42,839 nucleotides of DNA from a virus, in IMG/VR virus record IMGVR_UViG_3300040758_000113. One strand, written 5' to 3'. Positions 1 through 16,462 of this stretch are shown one piece after another (positions within the stretch are counted from its first letter, which is position 1; the number at the start of each line of letters is the position of its first letter). The translations under genes were made by a program, and so were the position numbers. The notes beneath the pieces are model-generated. The model searched no databases, was not told where the DNA came from, and worked only from the letters and a program-made list of their open reading frames with translations.

Positions 1-548
1 GCCTTGGGAGCCTTCTGCGTAGGCCGGGGATTGGCGGCAATGATCCCCTCCGCTTTGTCAACGGCGAACTGCAATCCCCAATAGGAGAAGCGCTCATCCT
101 GCCAAGCTTTCTTGGTGAGGAGAGAATCCTCATCCTCTTCCCAGTCCGGGGAGTCCTGACCTGACGCTATCTTGGCAACCTTATCCCGGTCGGCAACCAT
201 CCAGTCTTCTTCTCCGGGAAGTTTGTAGCCTTGCAGTCTACGCCAGATGTTGGGAACCCGCTTCTTATTGTATCTCTCCGGGAGGTAGCTCTTGATTCCC
301 TTCCATTTCGGATTCATGAACTGCATCAGGGCAAAGTACATCGCCTTGCCCAGTCCGTATCCCCGATGCCGTGGTTTCACTTCCACCAGTGCAATCCCGA
401 GATAGTCGTTCAGGGGTCCACTGTCGCTCTGTCGTTTGGTAGATAGTTTGCCAACACATTTGTTGTCCTCCGTCCATGCCGTAATATATTTAGCGTCTCC
501 GGGGTCATCTACAACGATACGGTAGCTTCCTATATGGGCTACCACATT
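1..548 (-). CDS. GNAT-family N-acetyltransferase, partial (3' end beyond window); probable GTG start at 548
   Basis: My own minus-strand translation gives ...LGIALVEVKPRHRGYGLGKAMYFAL..., the acetyl-CoA-binding motif A of GNATs (R/Q-x-x-G-x-G/A). The frame stays open to position 1 with no stop. A GTG at 548-546 is preceded by AGGAAG. The ORF is in the same frame as the upstream ORF 558-2126, separated only by the TAG at 558-560. Confidence 0.5.
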
Positions 549-557
549 CTTGTCTTC

Positions 558-2126
558 CTATTGTTCTACGGAGGCAATCTTTCTTGGCTCTGGTAGCACT
601 GTGATATTCTTGGGGGGAACAAGGTGGGTTGAATATGAAAGAACACCAGTTTCTCCCATTCCCAAGGGGTCCTTTGCCAAACGCATCCCCTCAGTCTTGA
701 TGCGAAGAGTAACCAACTCATCATCCTTGCCCCGTATAAACTCGGCGAGAAGGTTTTTCCAATAATCCACTCCCTCAATCGCCGTCAGAAATACTAAACC
801 CCGGTTCTCCTCAAAGGGGAAGTTCGGCTCCTTTTGGGGAACCAGTCCCTCTTGAAGTATCTTAGGAACCCGGCTCTTAAAAGTCACGTGATAGAGAATC
901 TCGGGAATCTCCTCAGCGGTCTTGGGGACCAACGCCGAGCCGGTGCCCTTTCGTTGATACTCCGGGTCGTTAAGGTCGGTGATTACCACTCGCCAATCAT
1001 CTTCTTCTCCGGGGTGGAATTGGTCGCAGGTGATGTCGATGATTTTATCCTGCGTCTCTACCCACCAATGTAGTCCATGCCTTCCTACTTGTAAATACTC
1101 ACCCTTCTCCGGTCCTTCTCCATAATACCCACCCGCCCGATGGGCATCAGGGAAACCATGTTCCCGCAGAAACTTCGCTAACAGGTCCGCCAAACAGAGG
1201 CACTGTTCACGGAAACAGGATTTGTCCTCTAACCACTCATACCAATCCTCTTGTTCCTCTCGGAACTGCCATACGAGCTTGGCAAGTGTATCCTCCTCAG
1301 CGGCCCTTCTCCACCTGATGACCTGAATCTGCTTCTTAATGGCCGCTTTGATATTTTCGGGAAGTGGGTAGTTGCAACCGATTGACCCATCATCTTCTAC
1401 CCAGAATATGGTGATATCTCCACTGGTCTTTCCATGGGAGTCTCCCCATGGGGTATCGCCCCAGCCGATGGCGGGTCCACCACCTTGCGGACCTTCGGGG
1501 GCACGAGGGTCGGTTTTGGTCCAGTCGTATTCACTCTGTTCCCTCTCCAGAATCGGCTGGCTGAATATGTGGCTGTGGTGCCATCCACCCGCCTTGCACT
1601 CCTGATAGTTGTGGGCTTCTTCAATGTGCCCATCCAGCAAGGACACCGCTCCCAAGGAAAACGGCTTGCCATTCCAACGGGCGTTGTCTCTTGTGAGCGC
1701 AGCGGTCTTGGGTCTTGGGATAAGCTCGATATGCTTTACTTCGTTCTCCTCCACTACCCGTACTTCCTGCACCGCAGGAGCCTGCTGTTTCTTACGCACA
1801 GAATCCCGGTCGGTACCCTCCGCCTTACAAATTGGGCAGTGGCGGGACAGACCACCACTGTTCTTGAGTTTGCGCTCGAACTCACGAGTCACTCCACTCC
1901 AAATACGAGCCACGGTAAATTCTACATGTCGCTGATGGGCAACCTCCATAAGTCTGGCCCGTGAAGTCCCATTCATATGTAAAGCAATGCGGGCCTCGGG
2001 GTCTAAAGCAAATCCGCAATAATGGCGAACCCTTGCTTGAGACCCATGAAAAATCCCACCTCCTAAGAAGTGAAGAAGATACACAGAGCCTATTTGATTT
2101 TTATCAGCTTGTATATCAAATGACAA
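558..2126 (-). CDS. Large multidomain (polyvalent-type) protein: N-terminal GIY-YIG-like nuclease domain, C4-type zinc motif, papain-fold Cys-His-Asp module; TTG start as given by the ORF track
   Basis: N-terminus GSVYLLHF...RHYCGFALDPEARIALHMNG fits the GIY...YIG...R...H pattern. It is followed by HCPICK. Residues ~311-368 read CLCLADLL...HGLHWWVETQDKIIDITCDQF, which parallels NCGFIAD...HVWNVSEDGTIIDITHDQF in ORF 2782-6039. GGAGG sits 5 nt upstream of the TTG. Confidence 0.45.
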   Translation of the reverse strand: MSFDIQADKNQIGSVYLLHFLGGGIFHGSQARVRHYCGFALDPEARIALHMNGTSRARLMEVAHQRHVEFTVARIWSGVTREFERKLKNSGGLSRHCPICKAEGTDRDSVRKKQQAPAVQEVRVVEENEVKHIELIPRPKTAALTRDNARWNGKPFSLGAVSLLDGHIEEAHNYQECKAGGWHHSHIFSQPILEREQSEYDWTKTDPRAPEGPQGGGPAIGWGDTPWGDSHGKTSGDITIFWVEDDGSIGCNYPLPENIKAAIKKQIQVIRWRRAAEEDTLAKLVWQFREEQEDWYEWLEDKSCFREQCLCLADLLAKFLREHGFPDAHRAGGYYGEGPEKGEYLQVGRHGLHWWVETQDKIIDITCDQFHPGEEDDWRVVITDLNDPEYQRKGTGSALVPKTAEEIPEILYHVTFKSRVPKILQEGLVPQKEPNFPFEENRGLVFLTAIEGVDYWKNLLAEFIRGKDDELVTLRIKTEGMRLAKDPLGMGETGVLSYSTHLVPPKNITVLPEPRKIASVEQ

Positions 2127-2137
2127 ACTTTCCTCCT

Positions 2138-2752
2138 CTACTTTTTATTAAAACGTAACCACCTAGCCATTGATTCAAAAATTTCGGGATTAGTTTCATT
2201 TTGTTTTATGCAATTAGCTTTGTAGGATATAACAGCGATGTTGCCAACCACATATCCTCCTTTAGGGTCAATCCTATCAAGTGATGGGGATTGACGTTGA
2301 GGCCCCATTCCAGTTTTATTGGACTCTAATTCAATTCCTAAAATTGGGCACTTATTGTCTTTTGGCCACGCTTTCTTAATATCTTCCATGGTGATTCCAA
2401 ACTCTAGTCCTCCCTCTCTTGCTCGTCCTTTAGCTGAATGATACATTTTGTATTCTCGTTGTGTTCTTGCTCGGATAGCCCGTCGTGCATGAGACTGTTC
2501 AATGTGACATTGGTAACATTCTGTATTTCTTACAAACCGTTTTGACGTGTGTCCCTCCGAACAAGGACGAGGGAAAGAATAGAATTTTTCTCCTTGGTTT
2601 TTGGCTGCCTTCCTTACCTCCTCTTCCTCCTTTGAGTGTCCCCGAATTACCTTGATTCCCTTATGGGATTCACTAATTTTTCTTCGGTGGTCACTAGAAA
2701 GCTCTGACCCCTTATTCCAAGGAATGTTACCCTTTTCGTATTTTCTGCCCAT
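2138..2752 (-). CDS. HNH homing endonuclease with NUMOD3-like repeats
   Basis: GNIPWNKG...RRKISESHKG (NUMOD3-like) plus C-terminal CPILGIEL...SLDRIDPKGGYVVGNIAVISYKANCIKQN, a phage HNH_3-type motif. Confidence 0.7.
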   Translation of the reverse strand: MGRKYEKGNIPWNKGSELSSDHRRKISESHKGIKVIRGHSKEEEEVRKAAKNQGEKFYSFPRPCSEGHTSKRFVRNTECYQCHIEQSHARRAIRARTQREYKMYHSAKGRAREGGLEFGITMEDIKKAWPKDNKCPILGIELESNKTGMGPQRQSPSLDRIDPKGGYVVGNIAVISYKANCIKQNETNPEIFESMARWLRFNKK

Positions 2753-2781
2753 CCATATCCTCCTATAGATGGGTTGAAAAG

Positions 2782-5700
2782 TTAACTTTCATTAGAAAAC
2801 CTAGGATTCATTAAAGGACCAAATTGCTCATCCAAGTACCCCTCTTTCTCTGCCTTCTCTTCCTGCTTTTCCCTCAATGTTCCGTTAAGGTCCCAAGATG
2901 GGTCAGGTTCATTCATGCCAAAGCGTACAAGGCCAAGTTCCTCAAGCAAATCCTCATTGAGTTTGCGCCAGACCTTTCCATCCCACATCTCTATCCGACT
3001 GGCGGGGATGGTCTTTTGGGTAAAGAAGGCTTCGGCACCAGCATCACCCGTTCCATATTCATCTTCCTCAAACCCGTAACGTTTGTACTCCTTGATGCGC
3101 AAGACTACGGGAATCATGCCATCAGAAACGGGGCTATCTGAGTTGTGGTAAGCCCACTCCTCCACTCTACTGACCCAGAACCCCACGCCCCGTGGGTCAG
3201 AGAAGAAAATACGCCCCTCAGTGTGCCAACCGTAATTCTCACCGATGACCGGGGGATGACCGGGTTCCAACCCCTGCCAGATGATATCCTCAAGTCGGTT
3301 GGCATAGGTCACATGATAGACATACCCCACCGTGGCGGCTTCCTTGGGGATAACCCACGAGGAAGAAGCGGTTACATTCTTCCAAGCTGCCGGGGGTTGA
3401 TGCCATGAATTTTCACTGGTTCCCTTCCAACCGAGTATCTGCGGGTGTGTTCCCTCCTTTAAGCGTATCTCCTTTTCCTCTTCTCCAAGGGAGGGGTCAA
3501 GGTTCACCCAGACGGTTGCCTCCCAGTCAACATCCTGCTCCTGCACTTGTGCATGAATGATGTATTTCTGATACCCCGGTCCAAAGTTTCCCCAGTGTGC
3601 TTCGGCGGCATTTTCATCCCGTGACCAGAAAACCCCGATACCCCGGCGCTTTAATCCCCTGATGTCTTTGAGGGTAACTACCCGGTAGACATCCAATGGG
3701 AAGGACCACATGGAGTGGTCGCCAAGAACATCATAGTACCGGTTCTCCAAATCTTCATAGGCCCGACGCTCCAGATATTCCTGTTGCTCCTTCTGCTCCA
3801 GAGCATCGAAAGCTTCCGTCTCCGCCCGGTCATAGGGTTCCCACTGGTCCCAACTGGAGCCAAACCCATTGACAATCTTCTCAATCCCGCCTTCTTTCTT
3901 AACGAACTCATCCCACGACGGGAAGTGAGCAACAGGAGAGGCGGTCATCGTAAGCTTGGCCTGCTCCTCCAGAACGTTCATAGGAATAATCGCCTTATTA
4001 CCACCCTCGCATTCCGGTTGGTTAGCGTATCCCTCTAGCCCCTCGCCTTCACTCAAGCTCTCGAAGTCATTCTCCCTATGGGGCGTCTGCTTGTGGGAGT
4101 CTGCTGTTTTTATAGACTTGTCTACTATGTCAATCTTCTCAATTTGGTTGACGCTTATCGGCTGTTTCTGTCTTACCGTTTCCATATATCGAAAGCTGTC
4201 TTTCCATGTTATCCCATAGCGGTCATTAAGCTCATCATACCGCCTGACATACTCATCCGATAGTGAATATCCCTCACCCATATCCCGCCTGCTCATGGTG
4301 AGATAGTTGACTAGCCAAGTGAGATTTTGACTCACCCTTGCCTGTTTCCTGATAGCATCCAACCCCACCTTCTGAGAGGAAGTCTTTTTCAGTTCTTCCA
4401 TATCTTCATCAGGCTGGGACTCCTCGTTCACTACTCCATTACCACAGATGGGACAGGCGTTCGCTTCATCCTCTGGGAGATACTGCCAGCAGTAAGCGTG
4501 GTAGTCATCGTACCCCGGCTGACCGGGCTTGACCACGTTGATATCGGGTGGTCCAAACTGGTCATGGGTGATGTCTATGATGGTTCCGTCTTCCGAGACG
4601 TTCCAAACATGGTCGATTTGCTTGCCGTTGTCTTCCAAGTACAGCCCGGCATAAACATCCCAACCATACTTTTTAGAAGCGGAGTCAGCAATGAATCCGC
4701 AGTTACCCTGACCCCTCACGGCGGTGGTATCCCCCATGCGCAACTCCGTGCGCAGAGCACGAGCCTCATCCAAGACCTCGGGAGTGGGCTGAGTATTCAC
4801 AGCGGATGCCTTACTTTGCTGGTAAGCATCCGACCTGTCTTTGAGGTCTTGAAACCACTTCTCGGTTTTCTTCTGTCGCCGGGACCGAGACCACTCCCTC
4901 ATTTTCTCATAAATCTCCTGCCTCTTGGCACGCTCCTCGGCAACACTTGCCGGGGGCTTTTCATCCCATTGCAAACGGAGGTCTGGCATTTTCATCAATG
5001 CCTCGGCAGCGAGAATCAAACCATGGTTATCCTTGTGGGGGTACTCCCAATGCCTAGAACCAATATTAGGGGCATCAACGAAATCTTGGTCGGTGGTCTG
5101 AGTCAGCCGGTACTCTTCCATGTTCTTGCCGCTCATCCATATTTTCTGTTTGCCAGAAATGCGGATAGACGCCTGCCAACGGGGAGAACCCCAGCTAGTA
5201 CGAGAGACTAAAACAAAGAAGGGACGCTCGGTAAACTGTTTCTCGTAACTCTCATCAGATTTATTTGTGATGAAGTCTTTGCCGTGTTTGGCGTTCCAAC
5301 GGTTGGCTATCTCCTTAAAGACCCCACCATGCCCACCTTCGATTCTCACTATCCTATCGAAGACCTTTCCTCCGGGGTAGGTTGACCACACCTTAAGCAT
5401 CTGTTCGTGGTGTACAAGCTCGTGGGCAATGATACGGCGGAGGGTCTCCTCATCATGACAAATGGCTTTTTGAAGGACGATAGTGGTATTGGGTTCCCCG
5501 TGCCGCCACTCGGTCCGGCCTAGCCACTTGGAGCGGGTATAGTCGGCAATCCTGATTTGTGGCTCCGGGAGGCTGGGGTCCACATCCGGCATGAGGCTGT
5601 GAAGCACATTGATGACCTCTCCGTAGTCCAAAGCCTCATCGGCGGCAATGACTCCCCGCTCCTTCAAAGACTTCCTAAGTTCCCCACCCTCTCCCGTGGT

Positions 5701-6039
5701 GCCGCTGCTAACAATTTGCTCACCGGGAAACTCTGCCTTGAGCTTCTCGTACATGGCGGTCGCCACACCACGGCGACGGTATTCCGGCTGAACATGAACG
5801 TACTTTATCCAAATTTCGTTATCGTACTCCGAAAAGTCCACGTAGCCAATACGTGTTCCCTGTTGGGTCTCCTTGCCGTCTGGACCGGTCGCCCATACCC
5901 CGCCACCCTCCAGCCAAGCTTCTACCCTGCCGGAAAGCTCTCCTCGGTGGGAATCATGGATTTCCAAACGAACTGTCATGGGGGGCGCTTCCCCGGATGC
6001 CCCGGCTGTCGGTTGAAGCAATGGATTGAGTGAACTCAT
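2782..6039 (-). CDS. Very large (1085 aa) polyvalent-type protein: GNAT acetyltransferase + SprT-like zincin (HExxH) + papain-fold Cys/His/Asp module + further uncharacterised C-terminal modules
   Basis: GNAT motif VQPEYRRRGVATAMYEKL (~5740-5820). TLRRIIAHELVHHE HExxH (5410-5424), SprT-like. QGNCGFIADS...DHVWNV...IIDITHDQF (4561-4701) parallels the module in ORF 558-2126. ATG start at 6039. Confidence 0.55.
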   Translation of the reverse strand: MSSLNPLLQPTAGASGEAPPMTVRLEIHDSHRGELSGRVEAWLEGGGVWATGPDGKETQQGTRIGYVDFSEYDNEIWIKYVHVQPEYRRRGVATAMYEKLKAEFPGEQIVSSGTTGEGGELRKSLKERGVIAADEALDYGEVINVLHSLMPDVDPSLPEPQIRIADYTRSKWLGRTEWRHGEPNTTIVLQKAICHDEETLRRIIAHELVHHEQMLKVWSTYPGGKVFDRIVRIEGGHGGVFKEIANRWNAKHGKDFITNKSDESYEKQFTERPFFVLVSRTSWGSPRWQASIRISGKQKIWMSGKNMEEYRLTQTTDQDFVDAPNIGSRHWEYPHKDNHGLILAAEALMKMPDLRLQWDEKPPASVAEERAKRQEIYEKMREWSRSRRQKKTEKWFQDLKDRSDAYQQSKASAVNTQPTPEVLDEARALRTELRMGDTTAVRGQGNCGFIADSASKKYGWDVYAGLYLEDNGKQIDHVWNVSEDGTIIDITHDQFGPPDINVVKPGQPGYDDYHAYCWQYLPEDEANACPICGNGVVNEESQPDEDMEELKKTSSQKVGLDAIRKQARVSQNLTWLVNYLTMSRRDMGEGYSLSDEYVRRYDELNDRYGITWKDSFRYMETVRQKQPISVNQIEKIDIVDKSIKTADSHKQTPHRENDFESLSEGEGLEGYANQPECEGGNKAIIPMNVLEEQAKLTMTASPVAHFPSWDEFVKKEGGIEKIVNGFGSSWDQWEPYDRAETEAFDALEQKEQQEYLERRAYEDLENRYYDVLGDHSMWSFPLDVYRVVTLKDIRGLKRRGIGVFWSRDENAAEAHWGNFGPGYQKYIIHAQVQEQDVDWEATVWVNLDPSLGEEEKEIRLKEGTHPQILGWKGTSENSWHQPPAAWKNVTASSSWVIPKEAATVGYVYHVTYANRLEDIIWQGLEPGHPPVIGENYGWHTEGRIFFSDPRGVGFWVSRVEEWAYHNSDSPVSDGMIPVVLRIKEYKRYGFEEDEYGTGDAGAEAFFTQKTIPASRIEMWDGKVWRKLNEDLLEELGLVRFGMNEPDPSWDLNGTLREKQEEKAEKEGYLDEQFGPLMNPRFSNES

Positions 6040-6117
6040 ATAACCCTTGGTTTTTCAAGTCCGGGGACAAGTTTCCCCCTGATTGAGAAATAGGAAGTCG
6101 GGTTGTTTTCAGTAGGG

Positions 6118-6969
6118 TTAAGTGGTTCTCTCATTTACCTTGAGCATAAGCAAAGGATGATATCCGCAGGTACAAGGTTTGCCACGGTTGATGTTCCAGC
6201 GTTGGCAATGCCCTTTTTTAGTCATATAAGACAGGTGTCCTGGCTTGGACATAGTTTTTTTACCATTCAAACTTATGGTAGCTGCTCGTTTCTTAACCCC
6301 CTCCATCATTTTATATCGAGTTTGGGGGTCTGACCATAGCTTCTTAACTAACTCAGATTGTCTGGTGCGAAGCTCTAAATCAGACCACCCCGCATTTACT
6401 GCTTTGGCTTGTTTAGTACGAGCCTCATAAGTAGAAAATCTTTTCCTATTAGCCTTAGATTTTCTATCTCTTACTTCTGGGCTCCTCAGTTTTTTAACAA
6501 CTTTGTCACGGAACTCCGAATCTTGCCATAATTTTTTGATAGACTCGGAATGTTTGGCTTGAGTTTCAGGGTCTTTCCATGCTTCTTTCAACGCCATAGT
6601 TAATCTGGTAATAAATGTGGGGTCGGCTAGTCGATTTTTGGCAATTTCCTTTGCTTCTTCTGAGGTAAATCCCTCTCCTCCTCGACGGATGTTGTAACCA
6701 TATTCAGGGTCTTGGGCTTTTAGAAAAATAATAAAATCCTTTTCGACTTGGTCTAACTCTTCTTTTGTTTGGATATCCGAACGGAGAGCATGAATGCTGA
6801 AACTACTTCTTCCATATTTTCTTATAGCGGCGTAAAGATGGGAGGACCCGCCTAAACCATGTTCCGCTTCCCAAAATTTTTTGTGAAGATATTTGCGGAG
6901 GTCTCTACCCTTATGCTGACCGATGTAGTATTTTCCTGTGATGTGATTAGCGATAAGGTATATGAACAT
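6118..6969 (-). CDS. GIY-YIG homing endonuclease (I-TevI/Seg-like) with NUMOD-type repeats
   Basis: N-terminus MFIYLIANHITGKYYIGQHKG is the GIY-YIG signature. Basic repeats follow in the C-terminal half. GGGGG RBS upstream of the ATG at 6969. Confidence 0.75.
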   Translation of the reverse strand: MFIYLIANHITGKYYIGQHKGRDLRKYLHKKFWEAEHGLGGSSHLYAAIRKYGRSSFSIHALRSDIQTKEELDQVEKDFIIFLKAQDPEYGYNIRRGGEGFTSEEAKEIAKNRLADPTFITRLTMALKEAWKDPETQAKHSESIKKLWQDSEFRDKVVKKLRSPEVRDRKSKANRKRFSTYEARTKQAKAVNAGWSDLELRTRQSELVKKLWSDPQTRYKMMEGVKKRAATISLNGKKTMSKPGHLSYMTKKGHCQRWNINRGKPCTCGYHPLLMLKVNERTT

Positions 6970-7002
6970 AATAAGCCCCCTATAAAGGAACCCATAGTTC
7001 AG

Positions 7003-7278
7003 TTACCTGTGAAACCTAATAGTGGTCTTAGCGTGAAGGGGAATGACGGTGTAATCGTACTCGTCCGCTTCCTCATTCTTCTCCGTTATGATGACTAAGT
7101 AGTGTCCTATCTTGGCGATAAGACCGACTGCGGTAATCTTGGAACCGATAAAGTCCCCGCCCAGCTTAACCTTCTCAAAATCGGGGAGGGGTTTTCTGCC
7201 TTCCGAATAAGCATCTTCCCAGTCCACCTCGCCGGGGCGGAATCGCACACCTTTGATTATTACTCCCTTCGGCTTCAT
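7003..7278 (-). CDS. Hypothetical small protein (ATG at 7278; ORF track uses GTG at 7284)
   Basis: ORF with AGGTAGG RBS before the ATG at 7278. No recognisable motifs. Confidence 0.35.
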   Translation of the reverse strand: MKPKGVIIKGVRFRPGEVDWEDAYSEGRKPLPDFEKVKLGGDFIGSKITAVGLIAKIGHYLVIITEKNEEADEYDYTVIPLHAKTTIRFHR

Positions 7279-7341
7279 GGTCACCTACCTATGAATATTA
7301 CCGGATTTGGGGTCCTTCAACCATGCGCCCGGAAGTTTTCT

Positions 7342-8496
7342 TTATCTCATTGAGTTCAGCACCTTAAAGTAGATGGAGCCGGTCATTGGCTTTTTCTCAA
7401 GCTTTTCTGGGGTTTCTGGTTTGGCCGGTTCGGACTTTTCTTCCTTTTTTACCGGCTTCTGGGCAAACCGGCACCAGTCGTCGGCGTCCACCTCAATGGT
7501 GCCGTCCGGGAGCTTTTTTTCTTGTAGCTCCGGGTCTACCATGACCACGGGATGCTTACAGGAGTCTACTTCTACCCCCTCGGCATTCTTGGAGTGGGGT
7601 GTCCTGTGGCGGCAGTCCATGCAGGTCGCTGGGCCGTCATGCCAGAAACCTGAAAGCTTTGACCCTGCCATGTCATATTCTGTCCCTTTTATTTTCTCCA
7701 AAAGTCCCTCTGTCTTGTTCAAACTACCCATTTTATTCTCCTTGTGTGTAGATTTCCATTCACGGAGCCAAACATCATCCTTGGTCCAGCTTGTCACTGT
7801 CCCCCGTATAGGCAGATAATTCTTCAACTGACGCTTGATGATATCTTCGGGGTCGATTATGTTCGACCGATAAGTCATAGCAAAACGATTCTCCTCATCC
7901 AAAACCTGTACCGTCCACATAGCATGAGGTTCACCCCGACGTAACTTCTTAGGGTTTAAGGGTAAAATGTATATCTCAACTCCTTGCTCCTCGAATGCAA
8001 CTTCCCCAGTATCAAACTTTTTAAGTGTTGCTGTCTTTTTCCTGTCCTCATCCCCTTCTTGATGCTCCTCCACTTTAGTGCGGAGAGAACCAAGGTCTGT
8101 CTCAAACACGTCCCCCAGCCTTTCTTCTTCCCATCCTTTAGGGTAGTGGACAAGATACGCCTGCTGAGCATGTTCTAATGTATCAAATCCCAGCATCACT
8201 TTAAATTCATCCGGGGTCTCCCCATTAGCCTTCAATTGTTCTACTATATAAACTTTATCAGAGTGAGGGTAGGGGCCTATATAGCAGTCCAATCCTTCAT
8301 CATCTTTACCATTTACACCGATAAAATGCCCATAATCGAAGTGCATTTTCCTTCGCCACGTCTTGCCGTCTTCATCAGTACCGACACGCTCCAACCCCGC
8401 TGGCCACTCAATCAGAATGGGCATACCCCGAAATTCGGTAGTATGCATCTGCGAAAGCTTGGCTTGAATTAATTTCTTTTCAGATTCCATGAGCAA
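7342..8496 (-). CDS. Hypothetical protein with C-terminal Cys/His cluster
   Basis: 384-aa ORF packed tightly with its neighbours. C-terminus CMDCRHRTPH...CKHP suggests zinc binding. No confident family assignment. Confidence 0.45.
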   Translation of the reverse strand: MLMESEKKLIQAKLSQMHTTEFRGMPILIEWPAGLERVGTDEDGKTWRRKMHFDYGHFIGVNGKDDEGLDCYIGPYPHSDKVYIVEQLKANGETPDEFKVMLGFDTLEHAQQAYLVHYPKGWEEERLGDVFETDLGSLRTKVEEHQEGDEDRKKTATLKKFDTGEVAFEEQGVEIYILPLNPKKLRRGEPHAMWTVQVLDEENRFAMTYRSNIIDPEDIIKRQLKNYLPIRGTVTSWTKDDVWLREWKSTHKENKMGSLNKTEGLLEKIKGTEYDMAGSKLSGFWHDGPATCMDCRHRTPHSKNAEGVEVDSCKHPVVMVDPELQEKKLPDGTIEVDADDWCRFAQKPVKKEEKSEPAKPETPEKLEKKPMTGSIYFKVLNSMR

Positions 8497-8550
8497 CTTG
8501 CGGTAAACGGGTATTAAATGATTACCGAACTCCTTATTAGAGGATTCCCA

Positions 8551-9675
8551 ATGAAGGAACTCATAGACATATTTATAGAACGATATCCGATGGTTGACCG
8601 AGACGCCTTTTGGGCATACTTAGACCACATCCAAAAGTCAAAACTACCAGAAAGAGAAAAAGGAAACTGGCACCACATCCTCCCTAAATCTATGTTCCCG
8701 GAATACAAGAGTAGAGTCGGTCATCCGTGGAATTCAGTTAAAATAAGCCCATTTGACCACTTCAAGGCTCACTACCTTTTATTCAGGGCCGTCAAATGCC
8801 AAGCTACCGCCTATGCATGGAAAATGATGAGCAAAATGGGAAAGATTAAAATAGAAGACGAATATCTTCAAGAGTACGAAAGGGCGGTTAGTGTGGTTAA
8901 GGACCAGTGCGGTAAAACAATGAGAGGAAAGGTTGCCGCAAAGGATAAAAATGGGGATATATACCATGTAGAAACAAATGACCCCCGCCTTAAAGACGGT
9001 AGCCTAACGCACTTTGCGAGATACACGGTCAATGTTAAAGACTCTCTCGGAAACCGCTTCAAAGTAAGAAAAGATGACCCTCGATATTTGTCCGGGGAGT
9101 TAGTGCATGTACGAAAGGGCAGAATAACAACGAAGGACAAGGCTGGGATTGTGATTGATACCACCTGTGATGACCCACGGCTGATAACCGGGGAACTCAC
9201 CCATGTAAACAAAGGATATGTTCTAACAATAGATAAAGATGGTGTCTACAAACGAGTAAGAGTGACAGACCCGGCGTACCAAAATGGGGACTTGATTCAT
9301 GCCCGTACCGGATATTCGCCAGATGGTAGCCCGGTATCGCCAAACATAAAATCCCGCCTTTGTCCCCAATGTAAAAAAAGACTAATCTATAAGAATAAGT
9401 ACCACTGTAAAATAGCTGATAAGACTAACGGGCTGTGTGGTAGTTGTGCGGCAAAGAATAGATGTGCCCCCTTATATACTAAAACGGAACGCCACTGCCC
9501 GGTTTGTGGTGTTTCTTTGCACTATAAATATGCTTGGTTATGCAAACAAATGGAGGAGCGGGGGAGCGTTTGCAGAAAATGTTCTTCTATGGCAAGGGCT
9601 AAACGCTTACGATGGCCCCAGACTAGATGGGACCACCAAATTAGTGGTATTATAAATCAAAAAGAAGAACAATAA
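8551..9675 (+). CDS. HNH-type endonuclease with four tandem DPRxxxGxLxH repeats and a Cys-rich C-terminal zinc-ribbon region
   Basis: NWHHILPKSMFPE...WNSVKISPFDHFKAH (HNH-like). Repeats: DPRLKDGSLTH / DPRYLSGELVH / DPRLITGELTH / DPAYQNGDLIH. C-terminus has CPQC...CGSC...CPVCG...CRKC. Start moved to the ATG at 8551 (GAGGA RBS) instead of the track's 8518. Confidence 0.55.
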   Translation: MKELIDIFIERYPMVDRDAFWAYLDHIQKSKLPEREKGNWHHILPKSMFPEYKSRVGHPWNSVKISPFDHFKAHYLLFRAVKCQATAYAWKMMSKMGKIKIEDEYLQEYERAVSVVKDQCGKTMRGKVAAKDKNGDIYHVETNDPRLKDGSLTHFARYTVNVKDSLGNRFKVRKDDPRYLSGELVHVRKGRITTKDKAGIVIDTTCDDPRLITGELTHVNKGYVLTIDKDGVYKRVRVTDPAYQNGDLIHARTGYSPDGSPVSPNIKSRLCPQCKKRLIYKNKYHCKIADKTNGLCGSCAAKNRCAPLYTKTERHCPVCGVSLHYKYAWLCKQMEERGSVCRKCSSMARAKRLRWPQTRWDHQISGIINQKEEQ

Positions 9676-11204: not shown

Positions 11205-12020
11205 AGTAAATGTATAGGGGTGGTGTTCTCTCATTGCCTTTATGAGTTGTCCAATTTCTACCCACTGTTCATATGTAAACCGGTTTGATTTTCCGCAATT
11301 GCATTTAGGGCAGCACGGAACCAAGTTATCTTTTCGATATCCAATTGAAGAGTCTTTCCTATCAAGGTTTGTCCTATTGTTCGCCCCACATCCCTTATGG
11401 GATAAAGCATTCCAAATTAGGGGTTCATCACAATAGTGGCATGTTTTAGATTCGGTTATAGTAACAAGTTCCTCATAAGTTAATCCCTCCCATTTTTTAC
11501 TTCTACGAATTTGCGCTATCATCCACTCAAGGGGCCGTTTCTGACGACCTAAAGATTGAAGATGCCGCCCGCAAAGGTAACAACCGCTGTTCCTGTCTTT
11601 CCTTATACGAATCCAAGACTTCACTCCATGAATGCGGCATCGTGCGTGCCAAAGATATGCCTTACCTCGTTGCTGTTGGATAGTTTTAGGAGGTTCATCC
11701 AAAATTTCCCAAGGACACTCTGGGGGTAACGGCTGAATCCTCATATCAATAAGCTGCCTTTGAGACATCCGCTTACCCCAGCATCGTCTACAACCTAGTG
11801 TTCTACCAGAACGTAAATTCAACCCCACAATCCAGCGTTTAACCCCACACCCAGAACACTGACAATACCACTTATACGGCTTACCCCTCTTCCCTCCACC
11901 TTGAGGTGAATCACTTAAAACAATCCATATACAATCTTGGGGCAATAACTCTGGTCTATTTCTCATATCTATAAATTTGTGCATTCGTTGTATATTCCTC
12001 CCATTACTAATATATTCCAT
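11196..12020 (-). CDS. HNH endonuclease with N-terminal tandem zinc-ribbon (CxCxxCG...GCxxC) repeats
   Basis: C-terminus CHYCDEPL...NLDRKDSSIGYRKDNLVPCCPKCNCGKSN (HNH). Repeats WYCQCSGCGVKRW...LGCRRCWG and LWHARCRIHGVKSW...GCYLCG. Confidence 0.65.
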   Translation of the reverse strand: MEYISNGRNIQRMHKFIDMRNRPELLPQDCIWIVLSDSPQGGGKRGKPYKWYCQCSGCGVKRWIVGLNLRSGRTLGCRRCWGKRMSQRQLIDMRIQPLPPECPWEILDEPPKTIQQQRGKAYLWHARCRIHGVKSWIRIRKDRNSGCYLCGRHLQSLGRQKRPLEWMIAQIRRSKKWEGLTYEELVTITESKTCHYCDEPLIWNALSHKGCGANNRTNLDRKDSSIGYRKDNLVPCCPKCNCGKSNRFTYEQWVEIGQLIKAMREHHPYTFTPA

Positions 12021-12039
12021 ATTTGATTTTCTTAATCAA

Positions 12040-12495
12040 ATGGCTAAAGAAAGAGGAATGTCACATAGTTGGGAAGATTTTCCAAAACGTAAAGATGAAT
12101 TAGGGTTTAACCTTTGCCGCTTCTGCGGCAAAGCTCTAACCGGTCGCCGGACCTCATGGTGCAGCAAACAATGCACCATCGAAGTCCTCCTCCTCTGCGA
12201 CTGGTCATTCATCCGCAACAAAGTAAAGCGCCGGGACAAGTACCGCTGTGTCCTCTGTCATCGCAATAAGCATGAGGCGGGTTCGCTGGAAGTTGACCAT
12301 ATCGTGGAGTTGCAAGACGGTGGGCAGACAGTGATGGAGAACTTACGAACAATGTGTTTAGAGTCTCATAAAGTTAAGACCAAACTCATGAAAACGGCAA
12401 GGTTTGAAAGACGGGTGGTTCTTTCACAAAAGGAATTATCCACCCTTCCATGCATTTCAAAAAAATGGGCAGGGCTTCCGGTCTTAAGCATTTGA
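12040..12495 (+). CDS. HNH endonuclease (small, McrA/HNH_5-like)
   Basis: CRFCGKAL...YRCVLCHRNKHEAGSLEVDHIVELQDGGQTVMENLRTMCLESHKVKT. ATG at 12040 chosen; the track ORF starts at 11977 inside the convergent gene's end. Confidence 0.6.
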   Translation: MAKERGMSHSWEDFPKRKDELGFNLCRFCGKALTGRRTSWCSKQCTIEVLLLCDWSFIRNKVKRRDKYRCVLCHRNKHEAGSLEVDHIVELQDGGQTVMENLRTMCLESHKVKTKLMKTARFERRVVLSQKELSTLPCISKKWAGLPVLSI

Positions 12496-13039
12496 AAAAC
12501 CCAATCATACCACCCCTCAAACGATTACACTTATTACATGAAATAACTAGATTTTCTGGACTATTATCCTCTTTAATTTCATTTAAGTGGTCACCCACAA
12601 TATCCTTCCATTCAAGAGTATTTCCACACCAAAAACAGGGGTGAACGCCGGGACCATACCTATCGTATAAAACTTTTCTGTGTTCTAAAACGTATCCCGC
12701 ACTAATCGCTAAAGGATGCTGAGGGAGGATTAGTCTTACATACCCATCTTTCTTGACGGCACGAAACTTAACTCCTTGTCTAACCACACTGCCCGTTCTT
12801 CTTTGTTGATAATAACAAGCCTCACATAGACCGTAGGTGGGGCGGTCAACCAGCTTACCACAATTTGGTGTATTACAAACTAACGCTCTTTTAATTTTTC
12901 TTCTGGATTTTAAGGTAGACTTTTCATACTCGGTTCTACACTTAACAGAGCAATATTTGCGGTCTGTACCCCTACCAACTTGGTAAGAAAACTCTCTTCC
13001 ACAAATACAGGTACGAAATCTCTCCGTTAGTTTATCCAT
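12386..13039 (-). CDS. HNH endonuclease (HNH_3-like) with N-terminal Cys-rich region
   Basis: GYVLEHRKVLYDRYG...CFWCGNTLEW...HLNEIKEDNSPENLVISCNKCN. The 3' end overlaps the convergent + HNH gene by ~110 nt. Confidence 0.6.
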   Translation of the reverse strand: MDKLTERFRTCICGREFSYQVGRGTDRKYCSVKCRTEYEKSTLKSRRKIKRALVCNTPNCGKLVDRPTYGLCEACYYQQRRTGSVVRQGVKFRAVKKDGYVRLILPQHPLAISAGYVLEHRKVLYDRYGPGVHPCFWCGNTLEWKDIVGDHLNEIKEDNSPENLVISCNKCNRLRGGMIGFFKCLRPEALPIFLKCMEGWIIPFVKEPPVFQTLPFS

Positions 13040-15799: not shown

Positions 15800-16462
15800 T
15801 TATGCTAAGGCGTGAAACACGCCTCGGTCACCACTCCAGTTAGCGGGTTTGTATTTAATGCTGACCATGTGGGCATCATTGAAACCAGCGAACTTTAGCC
15901 AAGATTCAACGCATGGGGGATTTGGTCCCCAAAGGCATGTGGGGTCACCGTAAGGCTTGTTTTTATCATAGAAACTGCATATGGGTTCTTCCTTGAAAAT
16001 CCAATCCAAATGGGTTTCCAAGATGAGCTTTCCCTTGCAGACAGAGTGAAGCTTCTGGAGGGCAAGAAGGGGGTTTTGAAAGTGGTGGAGCGCCCCGAGG
16101 CAAAGAACGAAGTCATACTTCCCAAGAAGGTCCGGGTCCAAGTCATGAACATCAAGTTTTATCCCCACCACCTTGGAATTTAACACTCGTGTGGCGAGGT
16201 CAAATCCCCGGCGTCCGGTGTCAAAGCACCACGTATCCACGGCAGTCACCGCAGAGGCCCCCCGGCGCTCGCACAAGAAGCTCCACCAGCCATCCCACGC
16301 ACCTACATCCAGTACGCTCTTGCCGGTTAAGTCCTCGGGGAGATGCAAACGACGAAGCTTCTCCTCGCTGTCGGTGGTGCCGGGGGTGATGACCCCGTCG
16401 CCAAGGTCAATCCTGTGCCACCACTTAATTGCATCAATTTCGGCCTTAAGTTTTAGATTCAT
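15800..16462 (-). CDS. Class I SAM-dependent methyltransferase
   Basis: Motif I GKSVLDVGAWDGWWSF, plus the acidic loop and a DFVLCLGALHH-type motif. Confidence 0.6.
   Translation of the reverse strand: MNLKLKAEIDAIKWWHRIDLGDGVITPGTTDSEEKLRRLHLPEDLTGKSVLDVGAWDGWWSFLCERRGASAVTAVDTWCFDTGRRGFDLATRVLNSKVVGIKLDVHDLDPDLLGKYDFVLCLGALHHFQNPLLALQKLHSVCKGKLILETHLDWIFKEEPICSFYDKNKPYGDPTCLWGPNPPCVESWLKFAGFNDAHMVSIKYKPANWSGDRGVFHALA

Follow-up and report, generated by a model that had tools for sequence, protein, structure and literature searches.

A YunG-like module with a predicted transglutaminase/papain-like fold recurs in two polyvalent-type phage proteins flanking a free-standing homing endonuclease gene

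The virus record IMGVR_UViG_3300040758_000113, a stretch of 42,839 nucleotides (nt) which was analysed as a whole and is referred to as the window, stems from an uncultivated large phage; its positions 1–8496 (minus strand) belong to a conserved gene array that encodes polyvalent-type effectors. Two products of this array, encoded by 558–2126 and 2782–6039 and termed protein A and protein B, are multidomain proteins which have in common a Cys-His-Asp module related to the Pfam family YunG, and an HNH-type endonuclease gene (2138–2752) lies between their genes. All three open reading frames (ORFs) are located on the minus strand, at the coordinates given in the original prediction, which was made from the letters of the DNA alone. 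Coordinates refer to the whole window; relatives are coded L001, L002, L004 and L007–L010 (loci) and P0001–P0137 (proteins). The features of A, B and the gene in between are listed below, with module borders taken from a local annotation by hidden Markov models (HMMs) and lengths in amino acids (aa).

558..2126, minus strand: protein A, 522 aa, TTG start; GIY-YIG-like domain, unknown middle module, YunG-like domain, C-terminal YHVT module
588..938, minus strand: YHVT module, A 397–513; candidate Tpt1/KptA-like ADP-ribosyltransferase fold; homologous to B 894–1020
936..1265, minus strand: divergent YunG-like domain of predicted transglutaminase fold, A 288–397; candidate triad C309 or C311, H353, D364
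1287..1697, minus strand: module of unknown fold, A 144–280; found only in P0007 besides A (50% identity)
1788..2114, minus strand: GIY-YIG-like N-terminal domain ending in CPIC, A 5–113; head conserved in the A-like genes of four further loci
2138..2752, minus strand: free-standing HNH-type homing endonuclease gene, 204 aa; PHROG families; G+C content 41% versus 52% in the flanks
2782..6039, minus strand: protein B, 1085 aa; GNAT, zincin, YunG-like domain plus Zn knuckle, linker, YR/W[ST]/ExE module, YHVT module
2980..3360, minus strand: YHVT module, B 894–1020; homologous to A 397–513
3403..3747, minus strand: 'FPLDVYR' (YR/W[ST]/ExE) module, B 765–879; candidate R-S-E-type ADP-ribosyltransferase by motif
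4000..4107, minus strand: junction motif TADSHKQTPHREN...EGYANQPECEGG, B 645–680; recurs at module borders in relatives
4435..4788, minus strand: YunG-like domain of predicted transglutaminase/papain fold, B 418–535 (418–519 in the HMM annotation); C447, H477, D489, Q494
4945..5631, minus strand: SprT-like zincin metallopeptidase with C-terminal extension, B 137–365; HELVH at 206–210
5656..5967, minus strand: GNAT acetyltransferase domain, B 25–128; PF00583 E 1.1e-6, 29.3 bits versus a cut-off of 20.7, match at residues 60–107

The ATG at 6039 is supported as the start of B, because P0002 and P0004 share its long N-terminal sequence MSSLNPLLQP...; the start of A, MSFDIQ, is conserved in P0007 and L001. 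Every motif quoted in the original prediction could be located, namely YRRRGVATAMY (residues 87–97), TLRRIIAHELVHHE (199–212), QGNCGFIAD (444–452), DHVWNV (476–481) and DGTIIDITHDQF (484–495) in B, and GSVYLLHF (13–20), CPIC (97–100), CLCLADLL (309–316), HGLHWWV (350–356) and KIIDITCDQF (361–370) in A.

BLASTP comparison of A with B revealed two common modules in the same order. The Cys-His-Asp module, which had been proposed as the shared element of the two proteins, is the weaker one (A 328–372 versus B 451–497, E 0.005); it stands as a common module, but not as the sole one, since the C-terminal modules align more strongly (A 394–505 versus B 891–1012, 27% identity, E 1e-7). An HMM built from 68 unrelated stand-alone proteins, when searched against the 530 six-frame ORF fragments of the window, picked out only B (1.5e-34) and A (1.3e-9), and alignment of A 285–400 with a family profile that did not include A gave an hhalign probability of 97.9% (E 4.5e-13, 92 columns). 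On these comparisons, the Cys-His-Asp modules of A and B are judged to be a homologous domain, with a similarity beyond chance. A recent local duplication of A and B was considered and rejected, because the B copy is typical of the family (114 bits) and the A copy is divergent (33 bits); the common modules are about 27–43% identical over short stretches. In an all-against-all comparison of A, B and the homologues P0001–P0012, modules were shuffled everywhere.

A profile of four copies of the Cys-His-Asp domain, searched against 1.84 billion representative proteins, retrieved 262 clusters at E ≤1e-3. The members occur either as stand-alone proteins of 100–230 aa, the form of most members among the 150 best hits, or as parts of larger proteins of 1,300–4,712 aa, some of which contain two or three copies. 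Alignment of 68 stand-alone members showed invariant G, H, W and D residues, with C, G, T and Q present in ≥90%; among 158 domain instances, His and Asp are both present in all 158, Trp in 154, Gln in 151, and Cys in 146 of 151. The Pfam family YunG (PF24585), named after YunG of Bacillus subtilis, is matched by 46 of the 68 stand-alone members, which match no other Pfam family (best E 5.6e-8). E-values for this family are 0.036 for A, 0.019 for B, 3e-4 for P0002, 4.5e-5 for P0004 and 1.1e-6 for P0014, the last of which, with 29.2 bits, is above the gathering cut-off of 27 bits. The module, initially regarded as not placeable in a named family, can thus be placed as a relative of YunG. Compared with Pfam YunG, the phage copies form part of giant multidomain proteins; B has a Cys-rich knuckle (C524...C529-P-I-C532) directly after the domain, a feature also of some stand-alone members, whereas A has a 14-aa insert behind the Cys helix. 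No PHROG family covers the stand-alone members, tblastn with the module and with the stand-alone member P0101 gave no match, and PDB sequence and profile searches with A, B, the module and the 68-member family were uninformative.

The AlphaFold2 model of B 417–545, based on a 73-sequence alignment, reached a predicted local distance difference test (pLDDT) score of 88.9 and a predicted template modelling (pTM) score of 0.81. In this model, C447 is the first residue of helix 31–42 (numbering of the model), H477 lies in strand 58–65, and D489 in strand 71–73; a low-confidence model of A has the same order of secondary structure elements. The order of Cys-helix, His-strand and Asp-strand, together with the conservation of the triad, bears out the papain-like fold expected for the common module, with structural scores that are moderate. 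It is also the canonical pattern of the transglutaminase-like superfamily, in which the Cys starts a helix and the His and Asp are on successive strands. The YunG-like domain of about 100 aa is thus predicted, with moderate support from the model, to adopt a minimal transglutaminase/papain-like fold. Foldseek comparison of the B model with the PDB did not yield a significant match, and comparison with BFVD yielded one borderline 98-aa viral protein (E 1.1e-3). Solved Cys-His-Asp enzymes used for comparison were Atu2299 (2hly), S. pyogenes TglA (9crn), LapG (4fgo), SseI (4g29), PeiW (8jx4), factor XIII (4kty), arylamine N-acetyltransferase (8k51) and SpvD (5lq7). The YunG-like domain differs from these in its minimal core of about 100 aa and shares only 7–18% sequence identity with them; moreover, it has an invariant Gln five residues past the Asp (D-x-T-x-D-Q-F), of which we found no description for the solved enzymes. 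Since relatives with this fold include proteases, deamidases, isopeptidases, cross-linking enzymes and acyl-transferases, the reaction cannot be read from the fold.

The other effector modules named in the original prediction fared differently. The GNAT domain of B exceeds the Pfam cut-off, as listed above. The zincin of B is sub-threshold (E 0.0023 and 0.00029, match at residues 170–251), but its homologues in P0004, P0014 and P0023 are above the cut-off. The GIY-YIG domain of A is weakly supported, the homologues of the N-terminal domain matching Pfam GIY-YIG (PF01541) with E-values from 0.087 to 0.0029, under the 22.6-bit cut-off; a PDB profile search with this domain returned nothing. Residues Y16, Y36, G38, R46, H50, E84 and N89 of the domain are invariant in six homologues. 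Pfam searches with A yielded weak matches only, to YunG, to Tpt1/KptA at 399–432, and to a zinc-ribbon half-site at CPIC.

The YHVT module, which is the stronger of the two modules common to A and B, matches PF01885 (Tpt1/KptA) with E-values of 0.004 in A, 0.0022 in a 528-aa protein of L002, and 0.006 in P0023, where the match spans profile positions 75–176; all three are sub-threshold. In hhalign comparison with ART-PolyVal, the YH[VG]T and G..F[ST] motifs were aligned (P 0.003, probability 11%). These matches provide a lead towards an ADP-ribosyltransferase (ART)-fold domain of the Tpt1/KptA kind. The YR module of about 120 aa is characterized by invariant R, G..W and E and by nearly invariant Y and second E of the ExE motif; 32 instances were collected among the relatives, with two copies each in P0003, P0013, P0020, P0137 and others. 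It did not match Pfam or PDB sequences, and hhalign gave a P of 0.002 and a probability of 14%; here the motif is the lead, pointing to a possible ADP-ribosyltransferase of the R-S-E type.

The junction motif of B recurs in the form [TV]A[DA]SHKQ(TPHREN...EGYANQPEC.EG) at B 645–680, P0003 848, P0004 779 and 929, P0005 294, P0013 1349 and P0015 234. Together with shorter K-T-A and NPLLQP motifs, it sits exactly where relatives swap modules. They may mark sites of proteolysis or, alternatively, microhomology used in recombination.

Among phage weapons, polyvalent proteins are believed to act first in the infected cell, and most of their modules are uncharacterised. In the survey which defined them, they comprise 2–15 domains with a zincin metallopeptidase (MPTase) as hub and ART and GNAT domains as common modifiers, and are predicted to be packaged in the head; DarB/DdrB of P1 and proteins linked to the virion RNA polymerase (vRNAP) of N4-like phages are examples, the InPase domain was described from such proteins, and the peptidase superfamilies listed are zincin, assemblin-like, DD and LonC (PMC5512222). 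The words papain, transglutaminase, cysteine and thiol are absent from the main text of that survey (PMC5512222); in view of this and of the list of four superfamilies, a thiol-enzyme module of the YunG-like type is apparently uncatalogued in the polyvalent repertoire. Like polyvalent proteins, A and B carry several unrelated domains, predicted to be enzymatic, per polypeptide (GNAT, zincin, YunG-like and two more in B, four modules in A). They also share with them the SprT-like HExxH zincin, GNAT and candidate ART-type modifiers, an InPase partner, and the shuffling of domains between orthologous loci; A itself is without a zincin. The giant relatives which contain the YunG-like module (1,300–4,700 aa) also carry ART-PolyVal, NUDIX, cREC_REC, GNAT and SprT domains, ART-PolyVal being found in P0005, P0017, P0024 and P0025 and in neighbours of the loci L001, L002 and L004. 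The domain mixing of polyvalent type which had been suspected is borne out by the GNAT and zincin of B, the InPase neighbour, and the ART-PolyVal, NUDIX, cREC, GNAT and SprT domains of the relatives. Unlike in the surveyed proteins, the activities are spread over three to five adjacent genes, and they include a Cys-His-Asp peptidase-like domain. The array is a known kind of system, now with a domain which the founding survey does not mention in its main text.

The interpretation we favour, with a probability of about 0.7, is that both A and B consist of enzyme modules which fold separately and come from a common, heavily shuffled pool, that the YunG-like domain is an active thiol enzyme acting on another substrate, and that the HNH gene is a free-standing element in the spacer between A and B. 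The YunG-like domain would be a peptidase, isopeptidase, deamidase or acyl-transferase; as the majority of the family consists of stand-alone proteins, it probably does not act on the polypeptide of which it is a part. In the phage proteins, the thiol activity would be one of several host-modifying activities, together with acetylation by GNAT and ADP-ribosylation; the activities would be delivered as a set, and the zincin or a head protease might cut them apart at the junction motifs.

Several results weigh against this interpretation. With 14.7 and 15.5 bits, A and B are below the PF24585 cut-off of 27 bits, and therefore are superfamily-level relatives rather than YunG members by the rule of Pfam. 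The Cys-bearing half of the module of A is divergent, so that the stand-alone HMM aligns only the His-Asp half, and in hhalign the family Cys falls between C309 and C311; the model of A 280–522, derived from a five-sequence alignment, had a pLDDT of 49 and was kept out of the fold search. The ART assignments of the YHVT and YR modules rest on sub-threshold matches (E 0.002–0.006) and on hhalign probabilities of 11–14%. A MuF domain, a portal fusion or a capsid-targeting signal was not identified in A or B. Finally, stand-alone YunG-like proteins are encoded on ordinary bacterial chromosomal contigs (L007 8001–8894, L008 4645–4962), and the domain therefore is neither phage-restricted nor conflict-specific in itself.

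One of these bacterial copies is located beside LexA, ImuB-like and DnaE2-like genes, the other beside a glutamyl-tRNA synthetase gene.

The main rival explanation is that the YunG-like domain is a self-processing peptidase which cuts A, B or their giant neighbours at the junction motifs. Fold and triad fit a cysteine peptidase, the K-T-A, ADSHKQ and NPLLQP motifs lie exactly at module borders in several relatives, and the domain is often terminal, or present in two or three copies, in giant proteins; besides, processing of polyvalent proteins is expected, a role for which the zincin MPTase has been proposed (PMC5512222). However, that role is already suited to the zincin of B, the junction motifs may equally be recombination microhomology or targets of a head protease, and the stand-alone members, some of them on bacterial chromosomal contigs, have nothing to cut in cis, so that we consider self-processing unlikely. 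Even less convincing is a non-catalytic adaptor, used for example in capsid targeting or in binding of host proteins, in which the Cys/His/Asp/Gln set would form a metal- or ligand-binding site. The lack of a significant enzyme match in Foldseek, the Cys-rich knuckle behind the B copy and some stand-alone copies, and the missing Cys in 5 of 151 instances would fit such a role, but the conservation pattern is canonical for the transglutaminase-like superfamily and the His and Asp are invariant (158/158), which makes an adaptor highly improbable. As a further rival, A and B might be ordinary cytoplasmic early or middle enzymes that are polyvalent in architecture only and never enter the head. 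This is possible, if somewhat doubtful, as known packaging signals as well as MuF and portal fusions were not found in A and B and the array adjoins replication/repair genes (exonuclease) rather than head genes, while, on the other hand, the proteins for which head packaging is predicted have ART-PolyVal, InPase and zincin as their signature domains (PMC5512222). Among the PHROG families matched by the InPase domain of the first array gene (7342–8496) are moreover some with the labels minor head protein, virion structural protein and DarB-like antirestriction; both arguments are at the level of annotation.

A more far-reaching version of the favoured interpretation would make the YunG-like domain an unrecognised phage-delivered thiol enzyme, for instance a deamidase or isopeptidase which removes or blocks a protein modification that serves the host in defence, present in hundreds of giant proteins alongside two uncatalogued ART-like modules (YHVT and YR), with the junction motifs (K-T-A, ADSHKQ) as a cleavage code for setting the modules free once delivered; we regard this as a rather doubtful extrapolation. 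Apart from it, an orphan Pfam family becomes tied to a concrete predicted fold and a strictly conserved Cys-His-Asp set, and the YunG-like family emerges as a recurrent building block of giant phage proteins of the predicted effector type, beside ART-PolyVal, GNAT, NUDIX and zincin. A predicted thiol-enzyme class thereby joins a repertoire whose listed peptidases had been limited to the zincin, assemblin-like, DD and LonC types, and B 417–545, with C447, H477 and D489, is a defined construct of about 100 aa for biochemistry.

The HNH gene begins 29 nt past the stop codon of B and ends 11 nt ahead of the start of A, and its G+C content of 0.41 differs from that of A and B (0.52). Its product matches the PHROG families phrog_3322 (endonuclease, 1.1e-30), phrog_1035 (2.7e-26) and phrog_3118 (HNH, 1.1e-12); no Pfam HNH model matched this protein. 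In tblastn searches, patchy relatives were found in 92 phage records with very different hosts, under features annotated as HNH endonuclease. At the same junction, L001 has a fragmented HNH gene (15809–15946, 16168–16434), and the A-like gene behind it is frameshifted. The HNH gene is absent from L002 and L004, in which the B-like and A-like genes are separate (with an 11-nt overlap in L002 and a spacer of about 36 nt in L004) and the A-like genes have a ribosome-binding site and the start peptide M-P-F-[DE]-[IV]-Q (compare MSFDIQ of A and MSFNIQ of L001). Because the B-like and A-like genes are separate in these HNH-free loci, with a ribosome-binding site and the same A-type start, the HNH gene most probably entered the spacer between the genes. 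Of the original suggestion that it inserted into or between the ORFs, only the second half thus holds, and to describe the pair as split by it is misleading, as the junctions of L002 and L004 place it between ancestrally separate genes.

An arrangement that could suggest otherwise is P0013, encoded in L009/L010 (two assemblies) by a close relative of L001 without an HNH gene; here the A-like GIY domain follows within the reading frame of a B-like ORF (...IMNPKVAVGQTVGQVYLLHF...). P0013 is without the tail of B and the first 11 codons of A; since exactly the start peptide of A is missing, this fits a deletion of the B tail, the HNH gene and the first codons of A, and from its sequence the fused ORF looks like the outcome of a secondary deletion. 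The simplest history would start from two genes, followed by invasion of the spacer by the HNH gene, decay in L001, and imprecise deletion with gene fusion in P0013; the spacer settled by the HNH gene between the separate genes would have measured 10–40 nt. If, instead, the HNH gene had divided a single ancestral B-A gene into two functional parts, a 'gene in pieces' comparable to phage genes that free-standing endonucleases interrupt, the in-frame B-A ORF of this HNH-free close relative in two assemblies would be the ancestral state, and the short flanks of the HNH cassette, only 29 nt and 11 nt, would be in line with that. Such a split is very unlikely, considering that L002 and L004 are HNH-free yet have two genes with a ribosome-binding site and the M-P-F-[DE]-[IV]-Q start, that the absence of this start peptide from P0013 is a deletion signature, and that neither the window nor L001 gave a match at Rfam gathering thresholds to a group I intron or any other RNA family. 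Location of the HNH gene in a group I intron, or an intron as the interruption in L001, was likewise rejected, because B has its own stop codon and A its own ribosome-binding site and start. An intein was rejected as well, the HNH ORF being neither in frame nor continuous with its neighbours.

The A-like part of P0013 ends soon after the GIY-like domain, and another frame downstream (L009 13600–14100) encodes a segment similar to P0005 in its C-terminal region (NPLFFSTDINALAQIPEGEIAILK...), which points to a frameshift or a further module exchange.

The features next to A and B in the window are the following.

1..545, minus strand: 5' part of the next array gene; likely GTG start 12 nt past the stop codon of A; open to the window edge; GNAT-like motif VKPRHRGYGLGKAMY
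6118..6969, minus strand: second free-standing homing endonuclease gene, GIY-YIG type, 283 aa, 41% G+C; between the 93-aa gene and B
7003..7284, minus strand: conserved 93-aa array gene, about 81% identical in L001 and L009
7342..8496, minus strand: InPase-domain protein, 384 aa, first array gene; PF18823 E 1.1e-34; two ORFs upstream of B

Free-standing homing endonuclease genes, as in T4-like phages, pass through a cycle of invasion, decay and loss. The elements described here resemble them in that low-G+C HNH and GIY-YIG genes occupy intergenic spacers of a conserved array, in that one junction is intact, decayed or empty depending on the relative, and in that two different GIY-YIG genes are found at different junctions. 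Unlike the T4-like elements, loss in one relative apparently fused the flanking ORFs in frame. The in-frame fusion is probably tolerated because the products are strings of independent modules. A single homing endonuclease site is thus available as a natural series of intact, decaying, empty, and apparently deleted with gene fusion.

By eye, a NUMOD3-like N-terminal repeat (NIPWNKG...KISESHKG) can be read in residues 10–35 of the HNH protein, and a core SLDRID...GY..N...N in residues 150–190, with Arg in place of the first His of the HNH motif. The GIY-YIG gene of L001 (9066–9620) is 30% identical to that of the window and is located between the InPase gene and a 90-aa gene; L009 is without one. 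A third homing-endonuclease-like gene of the window (8518–9675, plus strand, 385 aa, 43% G+C), which matches phrog_12434 (HNH endonuclease, E 7e-32), adjoins the array.

The array comprises, in this order, the InPase protein, a small gene, the B-like gene, the A-like gene, and a giant ART-PolyVal/GNAT protein; this order is kept in L001, L002, L004 and L009/L010, the contigs of the close relatives L001 and L002 being 219 kb and 118 kb in size, respectively. At the position of the giant protein, the relatives encode ART-PolyVal (up to three copies), GNAT and cREC_REC domains, and ORF 1–545 probably is the start of such a protein. Elsewhere, the window contains phage genes for a portal protein, large terminase, PolB, clamp loader, UvsX-like recombinase and exonuclease, plus several homing endonuclease genes; tRNA genes were not found in it. 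Megablast of the region against GenBank phages gave no match, and tblastn of B recovered no more than two phages, both of them distant, namely Tunturiibacter phage Tunturi_5 and virus Rctr197k.

In L001, a 362-nt direct repeat at 11723–12902 (94–99% identity, spacing 818–819 nt) lies in the coding sequence of the B homologue around a low-complexity insert, so that the gene is broken up into P0002 (700 aa) and an ORF of 986 aa; the region is unbroken in P0013, and the duplication may be an assembly artefact. The InPase protein of the window has about 95 residues more (residues about 157–252) than its counterparts in L001 and L009, and all three have in common, in the C-terminal third, a Cys/His-rich region (CMDCRH...CKHP...WCRF).

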